Below are positions 106 to 45,983 of a DNA stretch of 64,000 nucleotides, one piece after another. The stretch is from Minisyncoccia bacterium. GTDB lineage: Bacteria; Patescibacteriota; Minisyncoccia; Phycocordibacterales; Phycocordibacteraceae. The notes under the pieces were generated by a model. The model was given only the letters and a program-made list of their open reading frames with translations, was not told the origin of the DNA and made no database searches. The position numbers and the translations under genes are program-made. The stretch is from the NCBI GenBank assembly GCA_041485695.1, contig JBGPJZ010000001.1:44697-108696 (forward strand). The letters are read 5' to 3'. Position 1 is the first letter of the stretch; every line of letters starts with the position of its first letter.

Positions 106-579
106 ATGTTGATGATTCGATTCCAGCGGATTGGCCGGACCAATGACCCGGCATTTCGCATTGTCGTACTCGAAAAAGCTCGCGCCGCGAAGACTGGCCG
201 CATCACCGAACAGCTCGGCACCTACAACCCGCGCACCAAGGCAGTGACCCTCAATGAGGCCAAGGTGAAAGAGTGGATTAGTAAGGGTGCCCAGCCCTCG
301 CCGACGATGCACAACTTCTTGATTACGAAGGGTGTGATTGAAGGTAAAAAAATAAACGTTCTCCCGCGCAAGCATCCGATTAAGGTTGAGGCGCCAGCAG
401 CTCCGGCCGCGCCTGTCGCAGCCGCACCAGCAGCCGAAGCAGTTCCGGCAGTCGAGGCAGCTCCAGTAGTTGAAGAGGTAACACCCGCACCTGAAGAGGC
501 TCCTGCAGTGGCCGAAGAAGCTCCAATAGCCGTTGAGGAGACGCCAGCTGAAGTTGTAGCAGAAGCGCCGGCTGCGTAA
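106..579 (+). CDS. rpsP: 30S ribosomal protein S16 with an about 65-aa Ala/Pro/Glu-rich low-complexity C-terminal tail
   Basis: N-terminus MLMIRFQRIGRTNDPAFRIVVLEKARAAKTGRITEQLGTYNP aligns to S16 ([21 protein letters not shown]...GRFIE.IGFFNP). Gene order is rpsP-KH-trmD. Confidence 0.9.
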   Translation: MLMIRFQRIGRTNDPAFRIVVLEKARAAKTGRITEQLGTYNPRTKAVTLNEAKVKEWISKGAQPSPTMHNFLITKGVIEGKKINVLPRKHPIKVEAPAAPAAPVAAAPAAEAVPAVEAAPVVEEVTPAPEEAPAVAEEAPIAVEETPAEVVAEAPAA

Positions 580-583
580 CGCC

Positions 584-889
584 ATGGAGGCTGACTACGT
601 CTTTTTAGAATTTGTCGTCAAAGCGCTCGTTGATAAACCGGAGGCGGTACAAGTCGTGCGTACGGTAGACGAGATGGGCGTGTTGCTGACCCTCACCGTT
701 CACCCAGAGGACATGGGCAAGATTATCGGCAAGAGTGGCAAGACCGCCGAATCCCTTCGGGTACTCTTGCGCGTTGTCGGCATGAAGCACAACGCACGCG
801 TGAATTTGAAAATTAACGAGCCGGTCGGCGGCAAGCGCGACCAAGAGAAAAAGACCGTCGACCAAGTCGTCGACGAACTCGGACAGTAA
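584..889 (+). CDS. KH-domain RNA-binding protein (YlqC/UPF0109 family)
   Basis: GxxG KH motif (IGKSGKTAESLRVLL). Conserved position between rpsP and trmD. Confidence 0.8.
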   Translation: MEADYVFLEFVVKALVDKPEAVQVVRTVDEMGVLLTLTVHPEDMGKIIGKSGKTAESLRVLLRVVGMKHNARVNLKINEPVGGKRDQEKKTVDQVVDELGQ

Positions 890-902
890 TTACGCGCTTC
901 GA

Positions 903-976
903 AGAAAGCGCCTGCGAAAAAGTCCTCGGATCTCCTCGCCTTCGGCTCGGCCAGACTATTTTCTCGGCATCTTTCT
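903..976 (+). repeat. Copy 1 of an about 75-bp REP-like intergenic repeat (agaaagCgcctgcgaaaaagtcctcggNtctcctcgccttcggctcggccagactattttctcggcatctttct)
   Basis: Near-identical copies at about 36112-36185 (+) and 45540-45613 (reverse complement). Internal gcc-UUCG-ggc stem-loop. Confidence 0.85.
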
Positions 977-988
977 TCTTTGCTTGCT

Positions 989-1633
989 ATGAAATTCACT
1001 CTCGTAACACTTTTTCAAGAAGCCTGCGACGCATATTTGAGCGCGTCGATTTTGGGGCGGGCACGTAAAGATAAAAAGATAAGCGTTTCGTACGCGAATC
1101 CGCGCGATTTTGTAGAAAATAAATGGGGCAAGGTAGACGAGCGCCCGTATGGCGGCGGGCCGGGGATGGTGATGCAGGCGTTGCCTGTTATAAAGGCGGC
1201 TCAAAAAGCGTTGAAGGGCAAAAAGAAGCCGGTCATAGTTTGGTTTTCTCCAAGCGCGAAACAATTCACGAACAAAGACGCCGACGCGCTCGTAAAGTAC
1301 AACAATATCGTGTTCGTGTGCGGGCGCTACGAGGGAATCGATGAACGCGCATTAAAAATCCTAAAAACCCTCGCACCGGTCAAATCGTTTGCCGTCGGCG
1401 AAGCCGTGCTTACGGGCGGCGAAGTGCCTGCGATGGCCATCGTTGACGCGGTGACGCGCCGCTTGCCGGGCGTCCTCGGCAAAGACGCTTCAGTAGAGGA
1501 GCGCCGTATCGCCGCCTCACAGGTCTACACCCGCCCGGAAGTCATCAAATGGAAAGGGAAGAGCTACAAAGTCCCCGCCGTCCTCCAAACCGGCCACCAC
1601 GCCAACATAGACGCCTGGCGAAAGGGCAGATAA
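989..1633 (+). CDS. trmD: tRNA (guanine37-N1)-methyltransferase
   Basis: ERPYGGGPGMVM, CGRYEGIDER and LTGGE motifs. ATG at 989, 3 codons downstream of the ORF-track TTG at 980, and aligns with the TrmD N-terminus. Confidence 0.9.
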   Translation: MKFTLVTLFQEACDAYLSASILGRARKDKKISVSYANPRDFVENKWGKVDERPYGGGPGMVMQALPVIKAAQKALKGKKKPVIVWFSPSAKQFTNKDADALVKYNNIVFVCGRYEGIDERALKILKTLAPVKSFAVGEAVLTGGEVPAMAIVDAVTRRLPGVLGKDASVEERRIAASQVYTRPEVIKWKGKSYKVPAVLQTGHHANIDAWRKGR

Positions 1634-13257: not shown

Positions 13258-14118
13258 ATGAAACGGAAAAGGAAGGGGAAAAAGCTGCCTATCAAGCACT
13301 GGAGCCACTCGAGCTTGATGGCATTCTTGCGGAACCCTCTTGCGTGGTACAAGCGCTATGTCGAGGAGGTCTACGACACGCCTTCGAGCCCTTCGTCTAT
13401 CGTTGGCCGGGCAGGGCACCTCGCGCTCCAGCATTTTTACCAGGGCGTCGATAAAGACGCCGCGATACTGCTTGGCCTTGAGTACGTGCGTAACGTGCAG
13501 GATTTTGAGATAAACTTCGGCAAGGCAAAGAGTCGCAAGGCCCGGCGCGCAAAGCGCGCCGGGATGGAGCACGAGTACCTCCAAGCCATCGGGTTCTACT
13601 TAGCGAAACCCCCACGCCACAAAGTACTCGGGGTGGAGGTGCGCGGCGTGGTCGGCGTCGAAGGGCTCCCGCTCCCTTTAAAGGCCATCTCGGATTTAGT
13701 CGTAGAGTCAAAGCTTGAGAAGGGCGCCGTCGATATTGTCGACCACAAGTTCGTCGATTCGTTCAGTAAGACAGGAGCGAGGAAGTCACTCTTTATCATG
13801 CAGGCTATTTTTAATTACTACACCGTGCGCGAGCTCTTTGGCCGCCCCGTGCGGCGCTTCATCGTCTATGAGTGCAAAAAGTCGAAGAACGCGAAGGGCG
13901 GTGCGCAATTAAAACGCCACGTCATCGACTACCGTGAGGCAAAAGAGGACTTTGCTGTCTTTCATCGTCTCATCAAAGAGGCTACCGAGGAGCTCTCGCG
14001 GCGTCGCCACTACCTCCCCAACCCCTCCGACATGTTCGAGGGCGACCACTCGTTCGATATCTATCGCCTCCGCCTTCTCGAGACAGAAGAGATTGACGAA
14101 ACCGAGGAGGAACTGTAA
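13258..14118 (+). CDS. PD-(D/E)XK nuclease superfamily protein (RecB/Cas4-like fold)
   Basis: N-terminal HWSHSSLMAFLRNPLAWYKRYV, ISD...VDIVDHK (D/ExK) and QAIFNYY (QxxxY) motifs. Confidence 0.7.
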   Translation: MKRKRKGKKLPIKHWSHSSLMAFLRNPLAWYKRYVEEVYDTPSSPSSIVGRAGHLALQHFYQGVDKDAAILLGLEYVRNVQDFEINFGKAKSRKARRAKRAGMEHEYLQAIGFYLAKPPRHKVLGVEVRGVVGVEGLPLPLKAISDLVVESKLEKGAVDIVDHKFVDSFSKTGARKSLFIMQAIFNYYTVRELFGRPVRRFIVYECKKSKNAKGGAQLKRHVIDYREAKEDFAVFHRLIKEATEELSRRRHYLPNPSDMFEGDHSFDIYRLRLLETEEIDETEEEL

Positions 14119-19441: not shown

Positions 19442-19491
19442 TTACGGGGGCTATGCTTTACTCTCTGCGGAGAAGAAGAAAGGGGGCCACG

Positions 19492-20241
19492 ATGGCCGAC
19501 AAGGATTATGAATCACGAATGGAGGAGACTCCCGTAGAAATAGAGTTCGGCGGGGTGTTTGCCGGGCTCGGAATCGGACGCAGGCTGATTACGCTCATTG
19601 ACCAGGGTTATTCGCGTCATACGATTGCGCGAACGTTGCGGCTAGAGTTCAAGGCCGATGTCAGTTCGAATGCAGTCGCGGGTGCACGCAGGCGGCTACA
19701 GATGCATCGGGCGCGGATGGAAGGCCAACCAGAAAAAGTTGAAGTCAAGCGCGCGTTGCCCTTTGACTGGGGCCAACCACTACGGAATCAGGACTGCATG
19801 GCATCAGAACGCCTGCGTGAACTGGTTGCGAGGCCAGAAAGCTATTCGGCCAAGCAAATCGCGCTTTTTCTCCGGACGGCGGGTTGCGCCGGCCTCACTG
19901 AACAAGAAGTGATGAGGCAGGTCACGCGCACGGGGCTCAGGCTTAAAGGCCGGGGTAAGCACCAAGACTCCAAGCCTCGAGCAGTGGCACCGGCGTTGCC
20001 AGCCGAAACGAAGCCTGCGCCCGCCAAGGCAGAGCCGCATTCGGAGGATGTCATGGCTAAGGAGGGCGAAAAGAGCTGCCAATGGCCCATCGGCGACCCG
20101 GCCGACAAAGACTTTCATTCTTGCCCCTACAAGGCAAAACCGGGGAAGCCGTATTGCGAGAAGCACTGCCGGAAAGCTTATGAGCCCCAGCCTCGGCAAC
20201 GACGCCAACATCAGCAACTTCGTTCGGCGCGGATTCACTGA
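19492..20241 (+). CDS. GcrA-family cell-cycle-regulator-like protein
   Basis: C-terminal CQWPIGDPADKDFHSCPYKAKPGKPYCEKHCRKAY matches the GcrA signature C.WP.GDP...F.FCG...PYC..H...AY. N-terminal HTH SRHTIARTL...SSNAVAGARRRL. AAGGGGG SD before the ATG at 19492. Confidence 0.75.
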   Translation: MADKDYESRMEETPVEIEFGGVFAGLGIGRRLITLIDQGYSRHTIARTLRLEFKADVSSNAVAGARRRLQMHRARMEGQPEKVEVKRALPFDWGQPLRNQDCMASERLRELVARPESYSAKQIALFLRTAGCAGLTEQEVMRQVTRTGLRLKGRGKHQDSKPRAVAPALPAETKPAPAKAEPHSEDVMAKEGEKSCQWPIGDPADKDFHSCPYKAKPGKPYCEKHCRKAYEPQPRQRRQHQQLRSARIH

Positions 20242-20313: not shown

Positions 20314-20356
20314 TGCCAAAAATGCAAAACGCGCCCCCAGAGGGGGCGCGTTTTGC
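20314..20356 (-). terminator. Rho-independent terminator of the RRM protein gene
   Basis: 15-bp stem gcaaaacgcgccccc/gggggcgcgttttgc with a U-run on the minus strand. Confidence 0.7.
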
Positions 20357-20373
20357 ATGCGAGAGCTTGGGGA

Positions 20374-28308: not shown

Positions 28309-28322
28309 GCGAGTCCAGGTAA

Positions 28323-28358
28323 GAAAAAACGCGCTCCCGCCTTAGGGGCGCGTTTTTT
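28323..28358 (+). terminator. Rho-independent terminator
   Basis: acgcgc(t)ccc...ggggcgcgt stem followed by TTTTTT. Confidence 0.65.
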
Positions 28359-28374
28359 CTGTTACAATTACCGC

Positions 28375-32058: not shown

Positions 32059-32468
32059 CGCTACGGATAGCCCTTGCAGTCTTTGTAGCCGTGGTCATCA
32101 TCATTGCGGCGTTCGCCTTCTTCACCCCTCACGCCAACAGGGGCGGAGAGCAGGCGCCGAGCGCGAGTATCGTCCAGAAACCAGTGCCAGATGTCTCCCT
32201 TTCCGACTCATATAAAAAAGGCATGCATACGATTTCTGGGTCAATCATGGCGCCCACGCCCTGCACGAGCGTCACTGCCGATGCGAGCGTCGCAAGCGGC
32301 ACGCCGGCGGTCATCTCGGTCACCATCTCGATGCCCTCTGATGCAGGTATTTGTTTGCAGCAAGCGACCGTAGTGCCGTTCAAAGTTTCTGCAGCGGCGG
32401 GAGCCGACGCGATCATCGCGGCGTATGTGAATGGGGCACCTGCCTCGACGACTGTAAAAACGTTATGA
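32055..32468 (+). CDS. Small membrane-anchored A/S/T-rich protein (137 aa)
   Basis: N-terminal TM helix. ATGA overlaps with mnmA and the next gene. Confidence 0.5.
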   Translation: MTLRIALAVFVAVVIIIAAFAFFTPHANRGGEQAPSASIVQKPVPDVSLSDSYKKGMHTISGSIMAPTPCTSVTADASVASGTPAVISVTISMPSDAGICLQQATVVPFKVSAAAGADAIIAAYVNGAPASTTVKTL

Positions 32469-33358
32469 CGCCGAATCTTGCACAGGCCGAGAATATCCGA
32501 AGCAGGCCCGCTGGCGTCCCGATAGTCAAAGCCGATGGCACCATTGAGACGTTCGATCCTGAACGCCTGCGCTCATCGCTTATGCGTGCAGGTGCGGGCT
32601 CCCACGCGGCCGAGCGCATCGCAGAGCAGATTACGGAGACAGTGGTACCCGGTGCGGCCTCTCGAGAGATCTATGCGCGGGCGTTCGCACTCCTGCGAAA
32701 AGAGGCGCGGCCAGTTGCAGCTCGGTACGCTCTGCGTCGTGCACTCCTTGAATTCGGCCCCACGGGCCATCCTTTTGAGGACTTCGTGTCGCACCTCTTT
32801 CGCGCGAGCGGATGGCAGGTGAAAACGCGCCAGATGATGCAGGGTAAGTGCGTTACTCACGAAGTTGATTTTTATGCAACGCGCGAGAGCGAGTACCTCG
32901 CCGCCGAGCTCAAATATCACAACGACCCGGCCTACAAGACCGACCTCAAGGTCGCGCTCTATGTAAAAGCGCGCTTCGAAGATATCTGGCAGTGCGACCC
33001 GGCTTTCCAGACGTGCCCCGTAAACCGCGGATTCCTCATTACGAATACCAAATTCACGAGCGAAGCTATCGCGTACGCTTCGTGTGCAGGCATCGAGCTC
33101 CTCGGGTGGAGCTATCCTGCGGGCGCCGGGCTCCTTGAGGAAATGTCTCGTACCCGGGTGTATCCTGTGACGACCCTGACCACGCTCGCGCGCGCGGAAA
33201 AGCGCCTCTTAATCGACCAGGGCGTGGTGGCGGTAGACGAACTCGTGAAGAAGCCGAAGGCTCTTGATGCGCTGCACCTTTCGCCATCGCGGGTAGGGGA
33301 GATACGCGCTGAAGCAGATGGGCTTTTACAACTTGCGCACCCTTTCGACCATGAATGA
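32465..33358 (+). CDS. ATP-cone domain fused to an Mrr-like (PD-(D/E)XK) restriction-endonuclease catalytic domain
   Basis: N-terminal IVKADGTIETFDPERLRSSLMRAG (NrdR-like ATP-cone). C-terminal FEDFVSHLFRASGWQV...CVTHEVDFYATRESEYLAAELKYH (Mrr_cat-like D...ExK). Confidence 0.65.
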   Translation: MTPNLAQAENIRSRPAGVPIVKADGTIETFDPERLRSSLMRAGAGSHAAERIAEQITETVVPGAASREIYARAFALLRKEARPVAARYALRRALLEFGPTGHPFEDFVSHLFRASGWQVKTRQMMQGKCVTHEVDFYATRESEYLAAELKYHNDPAYKTDLKVALYVKARFEDIWQCDPAFQTCPVNRGFLITNTKFTSEAIAYASCAGIELLGWSYPAGAGLLEEMSRTRVYPVTTLTTLARAEKRLLIDQGVVAVDELVKKPKALDALHLSPSRVGEIRAEADGLLQLAHPFDHE

Positions 33359-33833
33359 CGTTATACGACCAACCTTTATATTTATTGCTGGCGCTTTGAT
33401 TGGTGGCCTTGCCGCTACGGTATGGTTTTCAGCCTCTCAGCCGGTTCCCTGGCCGGGCGGCGGCGTAAGTACTTCGACCGGAAGCGCTGCGGCACTCCCG
33501 CCTGATACGAGCGGGAGAGTCTCGGTAATCGGTCAGAAAGCTGGCGACACCGTCGAGGTTGAGTCGGTAACCGTGCCCCCTCCTGGCGTGTGGGTTACCG
33601 TACGAGAAGTTTCCGGTACCGAACTCGGGAATGTGCTCGGGGCCGCGCGTGCCCGCGGCCCCGTTTCAACCCTCACCATTCCGCTCCTCCGAGCGACCGT
33701 ACCTGGCCACGCGTACGCGGTCGAGCTTTATCGCGATGACGGGAATGACGCGTTCGACATCACGCAAGATAGTGTATATGTCGATTTCGATACGGGAAAC
33801 CCTGTCATCGCTCCGTTTGCCACGACCAATTGA
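33351..33833 (+). CDS. Membrane-anchored hypothetical protein (161 aa)
   Basis: N-terminal TM. Translationally coupled to its neighbours. Confidence 0.5.
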   Translation: MNDVIRPTFIFIAGALIGGLAATVWFSASQPVPWPGGGVSTSTGSAAALPPDTSGRVSVIGQKAGDTVEVESVTVPPPGVWVTVREVSGTELGNVLGAARARGPVSTLTIPLLRATVPGHAYAVELYRDDGNDAFDITQDSVYVDFDTGNPVIAPFATTN

Positions 33834-33834
33834 T

Positions 33835-34626
33835 ATGGCGGGCGCTAAACGGTATGCGAAGACGTTCGAACCTCTTTCGTCAGAGCCTTTTACGTTGAGC
33901 CGATCCAAGATAGATACGTTTACCGAGTGTGCCCGCTGCTCGTATCTCGACCTGCGTCTTGGCGTCAAGCGTCCACAAGGCCCGAGTTTTACTTTAAACA
34001 ACGCTGTCGACGAGCTCTTGAAACGTGAATTCGACGGGTACCGCGCAAACGGGACGGTCCATCCCCTCGCAAAGTCGTACGGCCTCGACCTCACCCCCCT
34101 CAAAGATGAACGGCTTGAAGAGTGGCGTGATGCCCTGCGACGGGGGATTAGAGCGCATCACAAAGAGACAAATCTTATCGTGCGCGGCGGCATCGATGAC
34201 GTGTGGCAAGACAAGCGAGGCCAGCTCTACGTGGTCGACTACAAGGCCACCGCGAAGAAGGAGGGGCCGAAGACCGCCGACGACCTCTACCCTTCATACA
34301 AGAAGCAGGTCGAGGTATACCAGTGGCTCTTTCGTAAAAACGGCTTTGTCGTCTCGCCGACCGCATATTTCGTATACGTGAATGGGAAATCCGATGCGAA
34401 GGCGTTCGACGGCAAGCTTGAGTTCGATATCGAGCTCATCCCGTATGAAGGCGATGATTCGTGGGTCGACCCTATGCTCGGCGACCTCAAGGCCATGCTC
34501 ATGAGCGATGAGATTCCACCCGTAGGGACCGCATTTGGAGGGGGCCCGTGCGACTACTGCACGTACCGCGAGAACGCTGGCAAAACGCTGCAAGAAGCGC
34601 AGAAGCATGCAAAAAGCAAGAAATAA
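33835..34626 (+). CDS. Cas4/RecB-like PD-(D/E)XK nuclease with 4-Cys (Fe-S) signature
   Basis: N-terminal ECARC and C-terminal CDYC cysteines. VVDYK (D/ExK) and EVYQWLF (QxxxY). Confidence 0.65.
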   Translation: MAGAKRYAKTFEPLSSEPFTLSRSKIDTFTECARCSYLDLRLGVKRPQGPSFTLNNAVDELLKREFDGYRANGTVHPLAKSYGLDLTPLKDERLEEWRDALRRGIRAHHKETNLIVRGGIDDVWQDKRGQLYVVDYKATAKKEGPKTADDLYPSYKKQVEVYQWLFRKNGFVVSPTAYFVYVNGKSDAKAFDGKLEFDIELIPYEGDDSWVDPMLGDLKAMLMSDEIPPVGTAFGGGPCDYCTYRENAGKTLQEAQKHAKSKK

Positions 34627-35409: not shown

Positions 35410-36102
35410 ATGGAGGTCAAGATTGACGCATCGTGGAAGAAGCATTTAAACACAGAATTTAAGGCGCCGTATTTCAAAGAGCTTACAGAGTTTGTTAAGA
35501 AAGAATATGTGAGCGAGATGGTGTATCCGCCGCCCAAATATATTTTTCATGCCTTTGATCTCTGCCCGTTCGACAAGGTCAAGGTGGTGATTCTAGGGCA
35601 GGATCCGTATCACGGCAAAGGCCAAGCCAACGGCTTGTGTTTTGCTGTGAACGATGACATCGTACTCCCGCCCTCGCTCCAGAATATCTTTAAAGAAATC
35701 GAAAGCGATCTCGGCGACCGAGCGAAGAGCGAGGAAGTCCCGAGGCTAGCAAGCCGAGGGGGCAATCTTTCGCGATGGGCAGAGCAGGGTGTCCTCTTGC
35801 TGAACGCGACACTCACCGTCCGTGCAAATCTCGCTGGCTCGCATCAGGGGCGTGGCTGGGAACAGTTTACCGACGCGGCTATCAAGGCGCTTTCAAGCGA
35901 GCGCGAGCACCTCGTCTTCATCCTCTGGGGAAATTATGCGAAGCAAAAAGGCGCGCATATCGACCGCAGTAAACACTTGGTCATCGAGTCCGCCCACCCC
36001 TCACCCTTCTCCGCTGCAAGCGGTTTCTTCGGCTCTAAACCTTTCAGCAAAGCGAACACCTACCTCGCCGAACACGGCGAAACGCCTGTCGATTGGCTAT
36101 AA
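35410..36102 (+). CDS. ung: Uracil-DNA glycosylase (family 1)
   Basis: GQDPYH and HPSPFS motifs. Confidence 0.95.
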
Positions 36103-36111
36103 GCGCTACAG

Positions 36112-36185
36112 AGAAAGTGCCTGCGAAAAAGTCCTCGGGTCTCCTCGCCTTCGGCTCGGCCAGACTATTTTCTCGGCAGCTTTCT
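36112..36185 (+). repeat. Copy 2 of the about 75-bp REP-like repeat, between convergent ung and the M13 peptidase
   Basis: About 95% identical to the 903-976 copy, with a UUCG loop. Confidence 0.85.
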
Positions 36186-36192
36186 CCTTCAC

Positions 36193-38157
36193 CTACCAAA
36201 TCTTGGCGCGGGCTTTGGGGGCGCGATAGAGCTTGTCTCCTTTTTTCACCCCAAACGCTTCGTAGAACTCGGTCAGATTAGAAAGCGGGCCGTTAACACG
36301 AAAAATGTCAGGCGAATGCGGGTCGGTAAGAATCGAGGTTTTTAAATGTTCAGGCCGTGCAATCTCACGCCAATCCTGTGCCTTAGCAAGGAAGAAGCGT
36401 TGTTCGGGAGCAAAGCCGTCAATTATTTTGCGCCCTGTCTTTTTAAGATGCCGCTCATATGCAGCGAAGGCAATCGCGTCCCCGCCAAGATCCGCAATAT
36501 TTTCGCCAAGCGTGAGTTTACCGTTGACCTTCACTCCATGCAGCTCGTACTGATTGAACTGTCGTTCAACCACGCGAGCCTTTTTCTCAAATCGGGCGCG
36601 GTCAAGCGATGTCCACCAGCTTTTTAAGTTGCCTTTTTCATCGAACTTCGAGCCCTGGTCGTCGAAGCCGTGCGTAATCTCGTGGCCGATTACAGCGCCG
36701 ATGGCACCATAGTTCACTGCGTCGTCGGCGCTTGCGTCGAAAAAAGGATGCTGGAGAATCGCAGCAGGAAAGACTATCTCGTTCGTACCCTGGTTATAGT
36801 ACGCATTGACCGTTTGCGGCGTCATAAACCACTCCTCGCGGTCAACTGGCTTACCGAGCTTGTGCATCTGGCGCGCGTGCTCATGGAGCGAGGCGCGCAT
36901 CACATTCCCGAAATAATCGGCGGGGTCGATGACGAGTCTTCGGTAACTCTTCCAGCGTTTTGGGTACCCGATCTTGCGGACCATGGTCTTTAGTTTCTTC
37001 TGCGCGCGTTTTTTCGTTGCCGGGCTCATCCAGTCAAGGACCTTGATGCGTTCGGCATACACGGCAAACAAGTCGCTGATGAGAGCGTCCATTTTTCGCT
37101 TTGCTTCGTGGGTGAAATATTTTTCTACATAAATCTGCCCGAGCGATTCACCAACCGTGCCGTTAACTGTCGAGAGTGCTCGGCGCCATAAAGGGCGCAT
37201 CTTTTTAGCTCCCGAAAGTACCTTGCCGTAAAAATCGAAATTAGCTTGCACAAATCGTTGCGAAAGCAGGCCCGCCGTCCCTATGAAAAGATGCCATTCA
37301 AGATACACTCGCCAGTCTTCCATCGAGGTTTGCTTAAGGAGAGAGCTCACCGCTTTCAAAAAGCCGGGCTGCATAACCAATATCTTGGTCGGCGTGCGCG
37401 CCCCGATAGCTTTCAAATATGAACGCCAGTTGACGACCGGCGACAACTTCTGAAGAGCCTTTACCGAGAGTTTATGGTAGGTCTTGTGCGGGTCACGCGT
37501 GTCCTCTTTGCGCATTGAGGCCGTTGCCAGCGTTTTTTCAATCGCGAAAATAATCGCTGCATTCCGCCTCGCATCTTGCGGTGCCCAGCCGAAGAGCTTC
37601 AGCATCCTTTCAATATGTGCGAGATACGCAGTACGAACTCTAACCTGTTCGGGGTTATTGAGAAGATAATAGTCGCGCTCGGGCACGCCGAGACCGTCTT
37701 GGTAGAGATGCAAGAGATATGTCTCGCTGTTTTTTGCATCTTGATCAATTGCTGCACCCCACAAAACACCGATACCAAGCTTGTGAAATTTAGCGACGAG
37801 GCGAAGCACATCCTCTTTTGTTTTAAGCTTCTTAATCTTTGTGCGGAAGCGTTCAAGCGGCTTCGCGCCGAGTGCATTACGCGCCTTCATATCCATGCCC
37901 GAGCGATACAAGTCACCAACAAGTTGCGGGGCAGTGCCTTTCATAAGGTGCTTGGCCTTGAGCAAGCCGTTGACGATTTCTCTCAGCTTCTTTTGCGTTT
38001 CAGTTTGGAGGATTTGGAAACTGCCCCAGCGTGACTCATGAGGAGGGATTTTCTCTCTTTTAATCCACCCCCCGTTCGCGTAATGAAAAAAGTCGTCCTG
38101 CGGGCGGACGCGCTTATCTATGTCTCGCGTATCAAATCCCCACCCTTTTTTCTTCAT
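36193..38157 (-). CDS. M13-family zinc metalloendopeptidase (PepO/neprilysin-like)
   Basis: HEITHGFDDQG (HExxH) and ENIADLGG motifs. Confidence 0.9.
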   Translation of the reverse strand: MKKKGWGFDTRDIDKRVRPQDDFFHYANGGWIKREKIPPHESRWGSFQILQTETQKKLREIVNGLLKAKHLMKGTAPQLVGDLYRSGMDMKARNALGAKPLERFRTKIKKLKTKEDVLRLVAKFHKLGIGVLWGAAIDQDAKNSETYLLHLYQDGLGVPERDYYLLNNPEQVRVRTAYLAHIERMLKLFGWAPQDARRNAAIIFAIEKTLATASMRKEDTRDPHKTYHKLSVKALQKLSPVVNWRSYLKAIGARTPTKILVMQPGFLKAVSSLLKQTSMEDWRVYLEWHLFIGTAGLLSQRFVQANFDFYGKVLSGAKKMRPLWRRALSTVNGTVGESLGQIYVEKYFTHEAKRKMDALISDLFAVYAERIKVLDWMSPATKKRAQKKLKTMVRKIGYPKRWKSYRRLVIDPADYFGNVMRASLHEHARQMHKLGKPVDREEWFMTPQTVNAYYNQGTNEIVFPAAILQHPFFDASADDAVNYGAIGAVIGHEITHGFDDQGSKFDEKGNLKSWWTSLDRARFEKKARVVERQFNQYELHGVKVNGKLTLGENIADLGGDAIAFAAYERHLKKTGRKIIDGFAPEQRFFLAKAQDWREIARPEHLKTSILTDPHSPDIFRVNGPLSNLTEFYEAFGVKKGDKLYRAPKARAKIW

Positions 38158-45166: not shown

Positions 45167-45520
45167 ATGGCATCTCGCAGCAAAGCACGTTCATTCAACC
45201 GACCGGTTAACCAGCGCCGGGCTTTGCTGCGCTCACTTGCGCGCTCACTCATCATCCACGAGCGCGTCTCGACGACCGAAGCGAAGGCTAAGGAGCTCCG
45301 TCCCTTTATCGAGCGCCTCGTCACCTACGGCAAGAAAAATACGCTTGCATCCCGCCGGCTCGCCATCGCAAAATTGGGTGACAAGGCGGCAGTAAAAAAG
45401 CTCTTCGACGCTATCGCCCCGCGCTACACCGAGCGAGCCGGCGGTTATACCCGCGTCGTGAAGCGCGCGGCGCGCGGCTCTAACGATGCCCGCAAGCTTG
45501 CGTACATCCTGTTTGTATGA
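45167..45520 (+). CDS. rplQ: 50S ribosomal protein L17
   Basis: NRPVNQRRALLRSLARSLIIHERVSTTEAKAKELR. Confidence 0.95.
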   Translation: MASRSKARSFNRPVNQRRALLRSLARSLIIHERVSTTEAKAKELRPFIERLVTYGKKNTLASRRLAIAKLGDKAAVKKLFDAIAPRYTERAGGYTRVVKRAARGSNDARKLAYILFV

Positions 45521-45539
45521 GAAATATAACCAGCGTAGG

Positions 45540-45613
45540 AGAAAGATGCCGAGAAAACAGTCTGGCCGAGCCGCAGGCGAGGAGAACCGAGGACTTTTTC
45601 GCAGGCGCTTTCT
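45540..45613 (-). repeat. Copy 3 of the about 75-bp REP-like repeat (reverse orientation), between rplQ and rplM. The loop variant is UGCG
   Basis: The reverse complement matches the copies at 903-976 and 36112-36185. On the plus strand it supplies aggagaaagATG in frame with rplM. Confidence 0.85.
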
Positions 45614-45626
45614 CCGCAGCATAATT

Positions 45627-45983
45627 ATGATGAAAGCCGCCACCCATACGATAGACGCGACGAACCGCACGCTTGGCCGCGTGGCTAGCGAGGCCGCGCA
45701 CGCCTTGCTTGGTAAGCGCTCGGCGAACTACGCCCAGAACGAGGCGCAAGCCATTAAGGTCACCATCGAAAACACCTCAAAGCTCCACCTCCCAGAGCGC
45801 CGTGTCGCGGGCAAGGTCTACACCCGCTACACTGGTTGGCCGGGCGGCTTCTTTAAGATGGGAATGAAGGAGATGATTGAGAAGAAGGGAATCGAAGAGG
45901 TCGTCCGCAAAACGGTCGACGGCATGCTCCCTAGGAACAAGCTCCGCGCGCCTCGGATGAAAAATTTGACTATCCATGCCTAA
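45627..45983 (+). CDS. rplM: 50S ribosomal protein L13
   Basis: MMKAATHTIDATNRTLGRVASEAA aligns to L13 (..WYVVDATGKTLGRLA..). An upstream in-frame ATG at 45546 lies inside the repeat and is considered unlikely. Confidence 0.9.
   Translation: MMKAATHTIDATNRTLGRVASEAAHALLGKRSANYAQNEAQAIKVTIENTSKLHLPERRVAGKVYTRYTGWPGGFFKMGMKEMIEKKGIEEVVRKTVDGMLPRNKLRAPRMKNLTIHA

Follow-up and report, generated by a model that had tools for sequence, protein, structure and literature searches.

A dispersed hairpin element of Patescibacteria, probably mobile, found between genes and in frame within them

What kind of sequence recurs at unrelated loci, nearly unchanged, in spacers that it almost fills? The question is raised by a 64,000-nucleotide stretch from a Minisyncoccia bacterium (GenBank assembly GCA_041485695.1, contig JBGPJZ010000001.1, positions 44,697 to 108,696 of the forward strand), referred to below as the window, which carries three copies of a repeat that folds into an imperfect hairpin. 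Combined with their homologues elsewhere, these repeats probably represent a family of non-autonomous, hairpin-forming mobile DNA elements specific to Patescibacteria, the candidate phyla radiation (CPR). Whole units come and go at precise sites and are found in either orientation at one and the same site; they occupy very short intergenic spacers in the window and, in relatives, lie in frame where housekeeping proteins have loops, adding peptide as translation reads through them. The copies in the window, and the parts of copy 1, are as follows (scores are from covariance model (CM) searches):

896-983, plus strand: copy 1, whole hairpin element (CM R1, 86.5 bits, E 7e-23; predicted fold)
901-912, plus strand: copy 1, 5' arm of the outer stem P1 (GAAGAAAGcGCC), paired with 966-978 in the predicted fold
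914-935, plus strand: copy 1, 5' half of the conserved core (GCGAAAAAGTCCTCGGaTCTCC), invariant in 18 of 18 and near-invariant in 93 distinct copies
936-948, plus strand: copy 1, variable apical hairpin TCGCC-TTC-GGCTC, where the family varies most
949-965, plus strand: copy 1, 3' half of the conserved core (GGCCAGACTaTTTTCTC), conserved though outside the probe used for the genome scan
966-978, plus strand: copy 1, 3' arm of P1 (GGCatCTTTCTTC), from the fold and family-wide pairing
36105-36190, plus strand: copy 2 (85.7 bits; flanking genes by Pfam matches)
45533-45620, minus strand: copy 3, inverted (84.7 bits)

A sequence-only reading of the window had listed three copies of a repeat of about 75 bp at about 95% identity, and had likened it to a dispersed miniature sequence of the repetitive extragenic palindromic (REP) or miniature inverted-repeat transposable element (MITE) kind that folds into a long imperfect hairpin. 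The same three copies were recovered, on the same strands, by CM searches and by sequence matching, in which a 20-mer of the repeat occurs three times in the window against 0.01 expected by chance, and the hairpin description is supported. Pairwise identities over the coordinates of that reading are 96%, 96% and 93%, and its extent needs only a slight correction, the similarity running on to 891/896-990, 36100-36189 and 45526-45620 (89-92% over 84-95 nt) before it ends abruptly. As the similarity among the copies stops within about 10 nt of the hairpin, they are discrete units and not parts of longer duplications, a possibility that the reading had itself raised. Searching the whole 64-kb window with two CMs and filters off gave only these three copies (76-87 bits); no diverged further copy was found, everything else scoring about 15 bits or less.

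The gene contexts are likewise as first described. Copy 1 is sense to the rpsP-KH-trmD operon, flanked by the gene of the KH protein (584-889) and trmD (989-1633), and takes up 88 of the 99 nt that separate the stop of the KH-protein gene (889) from the start of trmD (989). Copy 2 occupies the 90-nt spacer of the convergent genes ung (35410-36102, PF03167) and an M13 peptidase (36193-38157, minus strand), and copy 3 the 106-nt spacer between rplQ (45167-45520) and rplM (start at about 45627), antisense to both. All three spacers are almost wholly filled.

Across the family, the element measures 78-100 nt and consists, from outside to inside, of a GC clamp, a TNC/TNC internal loop, the outer stem P1, an invariant core and a hypervariable apical hairpin. 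P1 comprises 10-16 bp, the sequence of which drifts while complementarity is kept. The core is asymmetric (GAAAAAGTCCTCGG.TCTCC / GGCCAGACT.TTTTC), its halves being separated by 7-43 nt, and contains a helix of GAAAAAGTC paired with GAC-N-TTTTC that never varies in the 93 distinct copies, as well as a conserved asymmetric junction of CTCGG-N-TCTCC opposite GGCCA. A flanking motif, GC-TNC / TNC-GC, can be recognised outside the stem, 58 of 88 copies having C at -1 and 56 having T at +1.

Alignment of the 93 distinct copies to the CM placed 91% of cells in pairs, showed compensatory double changes at all 12 of 12 P1 pairs and gave a covariation score of 0.407, compared to 0.118 for shuffles and 0.045-0.097 for slid partners, figures that lean toward the structure given that the alignment was fitted to the model. 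Wholly different P1 sequences are also visibly complementary in the raw sequences. Of the proposal that RNA structure is under selection, the structural part therefore stands, the covariation being real and strong, and the assignment to RNA does not, since the same pattern suits single-stranded DNA (ssDNA) equally. The apical hairpin tells a different story from the one first given, in which a gcc-UUCG-ggc stem-loop formed the centre of the element. The tip of copy 1 is GCC-TTC-GGC in the predicted fold, a 3-nt loop on a 3-bp stem, and reading it as C(UUCG)G would leave one closing pair only. UNCG accounts for 3 of 99 predicted terminal loops, so that the tetraloop is incidental and not a selected feature. 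Folding is in every case more favourable, by about 6 kcal/mol, for the reverse complement of the reference orientation, owing to a conserved C·A that becomes U·G on the opposite strand; this asymmetry fits the recognition of one particular single strand.

The family was traced by two kinds of pattern. An exact 18-mer of the repeat, scanned against 185,579 species genomes (one per bacterial or archaeal species), matched at 32 loci, of which 15 hold 16 full-element copies, all in metagenome-assembled genomes (MAGs) of Patescibacteria labelled Kaiserbacteria, Paceibacterota, Parcubacteria, 'Saccharibacteria' or Patescibacteria group; the remaining 17 share the bare 18-mer only, a number about that predicted by chance. 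A gapped pattern built from both core halves and run on metagenomes returned 92 stretches, mostly from groundwater and sediment, and CM searches of the 80 metagenome loci listed from these gave 86 hits, all with E below 1e-7 (numbers with the prefix L or P below denote loci or proteins from these searches). Pattern scans and the CM together recovered about 100 copies from Patescibacteria MAGs and metagenomes, with element GC contents from 36 to 65% and the same core throughout. Given these further copies and the strong covariation, neither of the outcomes that the sequence-only reading had named as refuting it has come about. Judging by the source names of its TrmD and L17 homologues (76-85% identical), the organism of the window itself is probably Kaiserbacteria-like. 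No copy was present in the viral contigs scanned, and there is thus no sign of a phage vector.

The view that such a repeat is undocumented for this kind of genome was borne out in the sources searched. Rfam 15 at the gathering threshold returned only tRNA-Tyr from the window and no family match for the element; in E-value mode, the best matches were RydC for copy 1 (13 bits compared to a gathering score of 48) and mir-559 for eight loci with other subtypes (24 bits compared to 95). No prior description was found in the literature on palindromic, REP, MITE or Rickettsia palindromic element (RPE) repeats of CPR, Patescibacteria or Parcubacteria, no work on CPR was found among recent papers citing the original RPE paper, and a 2024 review of prokaryotic MITEs leaves these phyla unmentioned.

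Outside the window, the element is found more often within genes than between them. Location was considered for 103 copies: 58 lie in open reading frames (ORFs) that continue without change of frame for 50 codons or more to either side of the element, two of these frames being doubtful, and about 45 are intergenic. Such in-frame residence is seen in relatives only, the three copies of the window all being intergenic. Pfam verified 15 intragenic sites by domain matches on both sides of the insert, in TsaD (two sites), MnmA, IleRS, Dus, Tgt, PolA, RecG and Fmt, and further in a Mur ligase, an M50 peptidase, an HhH-GPD glycosylase, a phosphoribosyltransferase, YfhO and a PF10672 SAM-methyltransferase. 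In none of the intragenic copies examined is the frame of the host gene lost or a stop codon present in that frame. Both orientations and at least five reading frames are used, yielding unrelated peptides (RENSLA..EDFFAG, EKIVWP..GDPRTFSQ, RKQSGRPEGG.., EKVLGSP..GQTIFS and AKKSSDL..ARLFSQ). In an AlphaFold model of a filled methyltransferase, confident on the whole (predicted local distance difference test score 89), the 26 extra residues form a helix extension and a low-confidence loop before the first Rossmann strand. Depletion of stop codons as such was set aside as evidence, being modest: the window copies are open in five of six frames, as are 7.4% of random 84-nt stretches.

Two observations accompany these locations. 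The TsaD gene of L086 (315-1715) contains two in-frame copies in opposite orientation, at 640-737 (minus) and 1157-1262 (plus), with Pfam TsaD matches around them. In the metagenome contigs L003 and L004, which have the same rplQ-rplM spacer as the window (region 45486-45983), the public rplM call of 145 amino acids (aa) starts at an ATG inside the element, compared to 117-120 aa in relatives without the element, an N-terminal over-extension of the annotation brought about by the stop-free frames of the element.

Evidence that units come and go is provided by the comparison of filled and empty sites. The window copies, at unrelated loci, are 89-96% identical even in P1, a stem that differs between genomes and between two or three copies within another MAG; the shared P1 points to a recent multiplication in this lineage. 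The site of copy 1 is empty in three relatives (TrmD 83-84% identical), where KH and trmD overlap or abut, and that of copy 3 in two (L17 88-89% identical), where the rplQ-rplM spacer is 13 nt as against 106 nt, so that copies 1 and 3 are recent lineage-specific insertions. The reverse case is seen at a position of mnmA that is filled in frame in L031, L089 and L094:

31489-31551, plus strand: empty site in the window mnmA (..ATGHYRS / GEKDQSYF..; tblastn of L031 MnmA against the window)

A further comparison comes from a survey of the 120 best homologues of the PF10672 SAM-methyltransferase, which fell into four groups:

Empty: 61 of 120, most with 287 aa, junction ..KLEK / PNVLNLF..
Filled: 25 of 120, typically 313 aa, with 26 additional codons (78 nt)
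Short footprint-like remnants: 2 of 120, 291 and 295 aa
Other: 32 of 120, some with another small insert at this position, the rest unclassified

Filled and empty homologues are interleaved in a neighbour-joining tree built without the insert region. Moreover, both orientations are found at half of the sites known from more than one lineage, 7 of 14 (methyltransferase, TsaD, IleRS, MnmA, Dus, RecR/VKOR and KH/trmD). At KH/trmD, the relative L116 holds the subfamily of the window in the orthologous spacer, inverted. In the methyltransferase, a lone sense copy (P0075/L129) is sister to antisense copies of the same tip subtype, and its 78-nt unit is reversed whole, arm-specific mismatches included. 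From these observations we infer either an in-place flip of the whole unit or its excision followed by re-insertion where it had been. No clear target-site duplication was seen at the methyltransferase, KH/trmD and rplQ/rplM junctions, where the genomes are too diverged to exclude one of 2-4 bp, and no convincing target-site motif was found at the junctions compared. The 'GCT..' shared by the two flanks of each window copy was rejected as a duplication, as it belongs to the outer clamp of the element.

The methyltransferase site has further peculiarities. In the two remnant alleles, P0041/L130 (gene 1231-2106) and P0062 (291 and 295 aa), only 'ERQE..LT' or 'ERPAGV' is left; judged by their sequences, they look like footprints from which the core was deleted and in which parts of the outer-stem arms remain. 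A second, unrelated palindromic insert occupies the identical site in L136 (about 635-690 in the methyltransferase gene 301-1200); it consists of a perfect 21-bp stem (GGACGTGGTACGTCCTACATC-AGA-..., -42.6 kcal/mol), encodes RPTSDVGRTTSYM and is carried by 19 of the 120 homologues (e.g. P0025, P0031, P0033 and P0036). Other short inserts, such as SQRLGTVSEGVRNRSH, are also found there, and this loop is a hotspot for hairpin insertions.

As to how a non-autonomous unit might be moved, the invariant core would serve as the recognition site of a trans-acting enzyme that moves or flips the unit. By analogy with the insertion sequences (IS) of the IS200/IS605 group and with REPs moved by REP-associated tyrosine transposases (RAYTs), movement would probably proceed via an ssDNA hairpin, a route suggested because neither terminal inverted repeats nor a clear target duplication was seen. 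By their insertion, copies 1 and 3 have pushed apart genes that overlap or lie 13 nt apart in relatives. No host role was demonstrated for the window copies.

Several points weigh against mobility of this kind. The ssDNA route is put forward by analogy. No mobilising enzyme came to light in the searches made: Pfam detected no DDE, Y1 or serine/tyrosine recombinase among the 40 window proteins scanned, and a tblastn search of 868 kb of loci with approximate RAYT and IS200 queries returned one unrelated IS200. It corresponds to an IS200/IS605-type Y1 transposase gene at 3894-4265 of L074 (the same DNA is in L096), on a Patescibacteria contig and 1.1 kb from an element copy, and is the only Y1 transposase near any copy in these loci; its end hairpins, CCTCGCAGC-TCT-GCTGCGAGC and CCTCGTCAGC-TT-GCTGCGAGG, are unrelated to the core of the element, and it was rejected as the parent element. 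A classical MITE has conserved terminal inverted repeats, and in this the element differs, its outermost stem not being conserved in sequence. A complete 993-kb chromosome gave a single match to the 18-mer probe, and copy number looks low in at least some genomes. Lastly, the core is conserved in place far beyond what would be expected of a decaying selfish copy, which mobility leaves unexplained and which points to purifying selection on resident copies or to a homogenising process beyond pure selfishness.

The window also encodes two PD-(D/E)XK nuclease-family genes (13258-14115 and 33631-34623), an ATP-cone/Mrr_cat protein (32351-33355) and a GcrA-like protein (19453-20238). No link between any of these and the element was shown; such nucleases would be candidates in a phylogenetic-profile comparison.

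The conservation of the core deserves a closer account. When the third codon positions of invariant residues are compared among nine orthologous methyltransferase genes that carry the element, identity is 0.98 in the core (10 columns) as against 0.49 in the remainder of the host gene (132 columns), and P1 and the tip have diverged in the same nine, including a 9-nt length change. Seven of the nine are loci of the genome scan, the probe of which leaves half of the core outside, and the same near-invariance of the core is seen in a protein-level sampling of methyltransferase homologues. Since the core is near-invariant beyond the probe and in the protein-level sampling, ascertainment is not the full explanation. 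The conservation may reflect purifying selection, fast and precise loss of defective copies that leaves only competent ones in view, or homogenisation of the core.

These data leave room for a bolder proposal, which we put forward tentatively and as something short of probable, namely that a nucleotide-conserved hairpin is actively kept in essential genes across the superphylum, either by a new hairpin transposon mechanism or as an ssDNA signal used by the cell. In the transposon version, precise excision, re-insertion or flipping at the same sites may be driven by an unrecognised enzyme encoded by Patescibacteria. Either version, if true, would make sense of two observations: synonymous change is resisted in the core although the stems around it drift, and very divergent lineages have the element, in both orientations, at the same gene positions.

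The strongest competitor to a mobile element is a host-functional signal at the DNA level, such as a binding or loading site of a conserved Patescibacteria protein, or an ssDNA hairpin for replication, repair or DNA uptake, which purifying selection would keep at every location and for which mobility would be only the way of spreading. It gains from the contrast of 0.98 with 0.49 at synonymous sites in orthologous copies with diverged stems and tips, from the upkeep of the hairpin by compensatory change, from the presence of the same core in hosts with 36-65% GC and from the occupation of the same gene positions in very divergent lineages; the independence of orientation, too, suits a role of DNA better than one of RNA. 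Nevertheless, many close relatives do without the element at the same sites and show no visible compensation, the sites are scattered over unrelated genes and spacers at a low and uneven density, and no protein is known as its partner. In a palindrome, switching of the template from one arm to the other could also, as we infer, yield compensatory changes without selection. We rate such a signal as rather unlikely.

A role as a cis-acting RNA, in which the hairpin would act as a terminator, stabiliser or processing site of RNase III or RNase E and tune the flanking genes, is improbable. The sequence-only reading had listed a transcript-stability or termination element of this type first among its options, and the window copies are all certainly or probably transcribed, the covariation is strong, and RNase III acts on hairpins of similar size in other MITEs, e.g. 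Correia and ERIC (enterobacterial repetitive intergenic consensus) elements (PMC10969869). A weak promoter-like match lies just upstream of rplM at copy 3. However, 32 of the distinct copies with known direction are sense and 39 antisense to transcription, and one and the same site can be filled either way round. The difference in folding energy between strands is independent of which strand is transcribed (Mann-Whitney p = 0.26), so that the transcribed strand has no folding advantage, and G-U usage shows no trend in the expected direction with transcription orientation. At the three window copies, no terminator was called and no U-tract follows, the T run lying within the 3' arm and not after the stem; Rfam gave no match; and most members of the family reside in essential ORFs, where termination or cleavage would be harmful. 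Random orientation, together with the lack of a strand-energy effect and of a terminator pattern, makes a strand-specific RNA role unlikely, and the proposed function in transcript stability or termination is not upheld; the other option of that reading, a MITE-like mobile sequence, is supported. The sequence at 45598-45625 (plus strand), TTCGCA-16-CATAAT, is a sigma-70-like match by consensus only (9 of 12), made up of the end of copy 3 and flanking sequence directly upstream of the rplM start; by this match, the insertion of copy 3 might supply or disturb a promoter.

Still less credit is due to an intervening sequence that is removed from RNA or bypassed by the ribosome, with the core and the hairpin as splice or bypass signals, which we consider very improbable. 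It would account for conservation of nucleotides and not of peptides within genes and for the compensatory upkeep of the stem. Against it stand the kept frame and the lack of stops in every intragenic copy examined, the occurrence of both orientations within one gene and the intergenic position of about 45 of the 103 copies. In the frame where a variable base of the core would give TAG, the intragenic copies have G or C and not A. No gene split out of frame by the element was found among the intragenic copies and ten tested intergenic pairs; all ten of these candidate split genes proved to be different, complete genes (e.g. NusG/L11, RecR/VKOR, Def/Fmt and RmuC/L21), and the split-gene or intron idea was rejected. 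Chance similarity or simple segmental duplication within this genome carries practically no weight, for although the copies in the window are few and nothing else speaks for it, it is refuted by the three matches against 0.01 expected, the end of similarity at the hairpin and the roughly 100 homologues in other assemblies.

Some features of the window stand apart from the family. Weak CM matches at 20319-20360 and 28320-28363 (13-15 bits) were rejected as members, being ordinary GC-rich hairpins; they are alike, have A/T flanks (AAAACGCGCCCCC..GGGGGCGCG..), are mutually 80% complementary and look like ordinary bidirectional terminators. Ribosomal protein S16 (106-579, plus strand; 157 aa in total) is extended at its C-terminus by about 70 residues with a high content of Ala, Pro, Glu and Val; in relatives the protein has between 120 and 176 aa.

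The genomes of Patescibacteria are very small and densely packed with genes, and the usual description gives them little mobile DNA and few known regulatory RNAs. A dispersed hairpin element common to the group, tolerated in essential genes of translation and DNA repair, would be of use as a marker of insertion polymorphism, and should be borne in mind as a source of annotation errors, as in rplM, and of length variation in conserved marker proteins. The conservation of synonymous sites and the flips at the same sites offer a testable handle on a DNA-processing activity in bacteria not yet grown alone.

The systems closest to a mobile element of this kind are found in other bacteria. Like RPEs, the Patescibacteria elements are short palindromic repeats of a reduced genome, located between genes and unusually often in frame in unrelated housekeeping genes, with an added peptide that the protein fold tolerates (PMC10969869). 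RPEs are about 150 bp long and each of their families encodes one conserved peptide, i.e. one reading frame (PMC10969869). The Patescibacteria unit, unlike these, has 78-100 nt and makes use of at least five frames and of either orientation, so that its conservation is at the nucleotide level; its hosts are Patescibacteria and not Rickettsiales, and the likeness is one of description. We know of no mobilising enzyme for RPEs, as for the present element.

Hairpins of the REP/REPIN and IS200/IS605 kinds are imperfect, with asymmetric conserved features and short conserved flanking motifs, and the REP/RAYT and IS200/IS605 systems have neither the terminal inverted repeats of DDE-type elements nor an obvious target duplication, plausibly being recognised as ssDNA. 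The Patescibacteria element resembles them as an imperfect palindrome with the flanking motif GC-TNC...TNC-GC. REPs are extragenic, usually 20-40 nt long and species-specific in sequence, and occur in hundreds of copies. The present element, in contrast, is more than half intragenic, shares its core across a whole superphylum and has a seemingly modest copy number, and no RAYT or Y1 gene is associated with it in the 868 kb searched with approximate query sequences, the single IS200 there being unrelated.

ERIC and Correia elements are imperfect palindromes of about 100 nt, present in either orientation in transcribed spacers and in lineage-variable copy number (PMC10969869). In size, imperfect palindromic form, residence in transcribed spacers in either orientation and variation of copy number by lineage, the Patescibacteria family is alike. 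ERIC is reportedly, as attributed to Wilson and Sharp in 2006, puzzlingly well conserved between genera. Both are essentially intergenic, with documented effects of RNase E and RNase III on transcripts (PMC10969869), whereas intragenic in-frame copies dominate in the Patescibacteria family. Classical IS-derived MITEs share with it the small size, the lack of coding capacity, the repetition and the polymorphism of presence and absence; the termini of the Patescibacteria element, on the other hand, are its least conserved part, the core being internal, no parent IS was found, and no target-site duplication is visible at three filled/empty comparisons of diverged genomes. Inverted repeats in, or fused to, protein-coding sequence are also described for the coding palindromes of Nematomorpha mitochondria and the QMITEs of Coxiella. 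The former are perfect repeats of up to 284 bp in an organelle and not a dispersed family with a conserved core, and the latter belong to a different organism and differ in sequence.

By analogy, the element would work like RPEs in its in-frame residence in housekeeping genes, and like REP/REPIN or IS200-type hairpins in its asymmetric conserved hairpin without terminal repeats or a clear target duplication. It departs from each of these groups in defining features: it encodes no single peptide as RPEs do, it is neither extragenic nor accompanied by a detected RAYT as REPs are, and it has neither the conserved termini nor a detected parent IS as expected of a MITE. As a mobile element, it would represent a second, independent case of selfish DNA inside protein-coding genes, a phenomenon best documented in Rickettsia.

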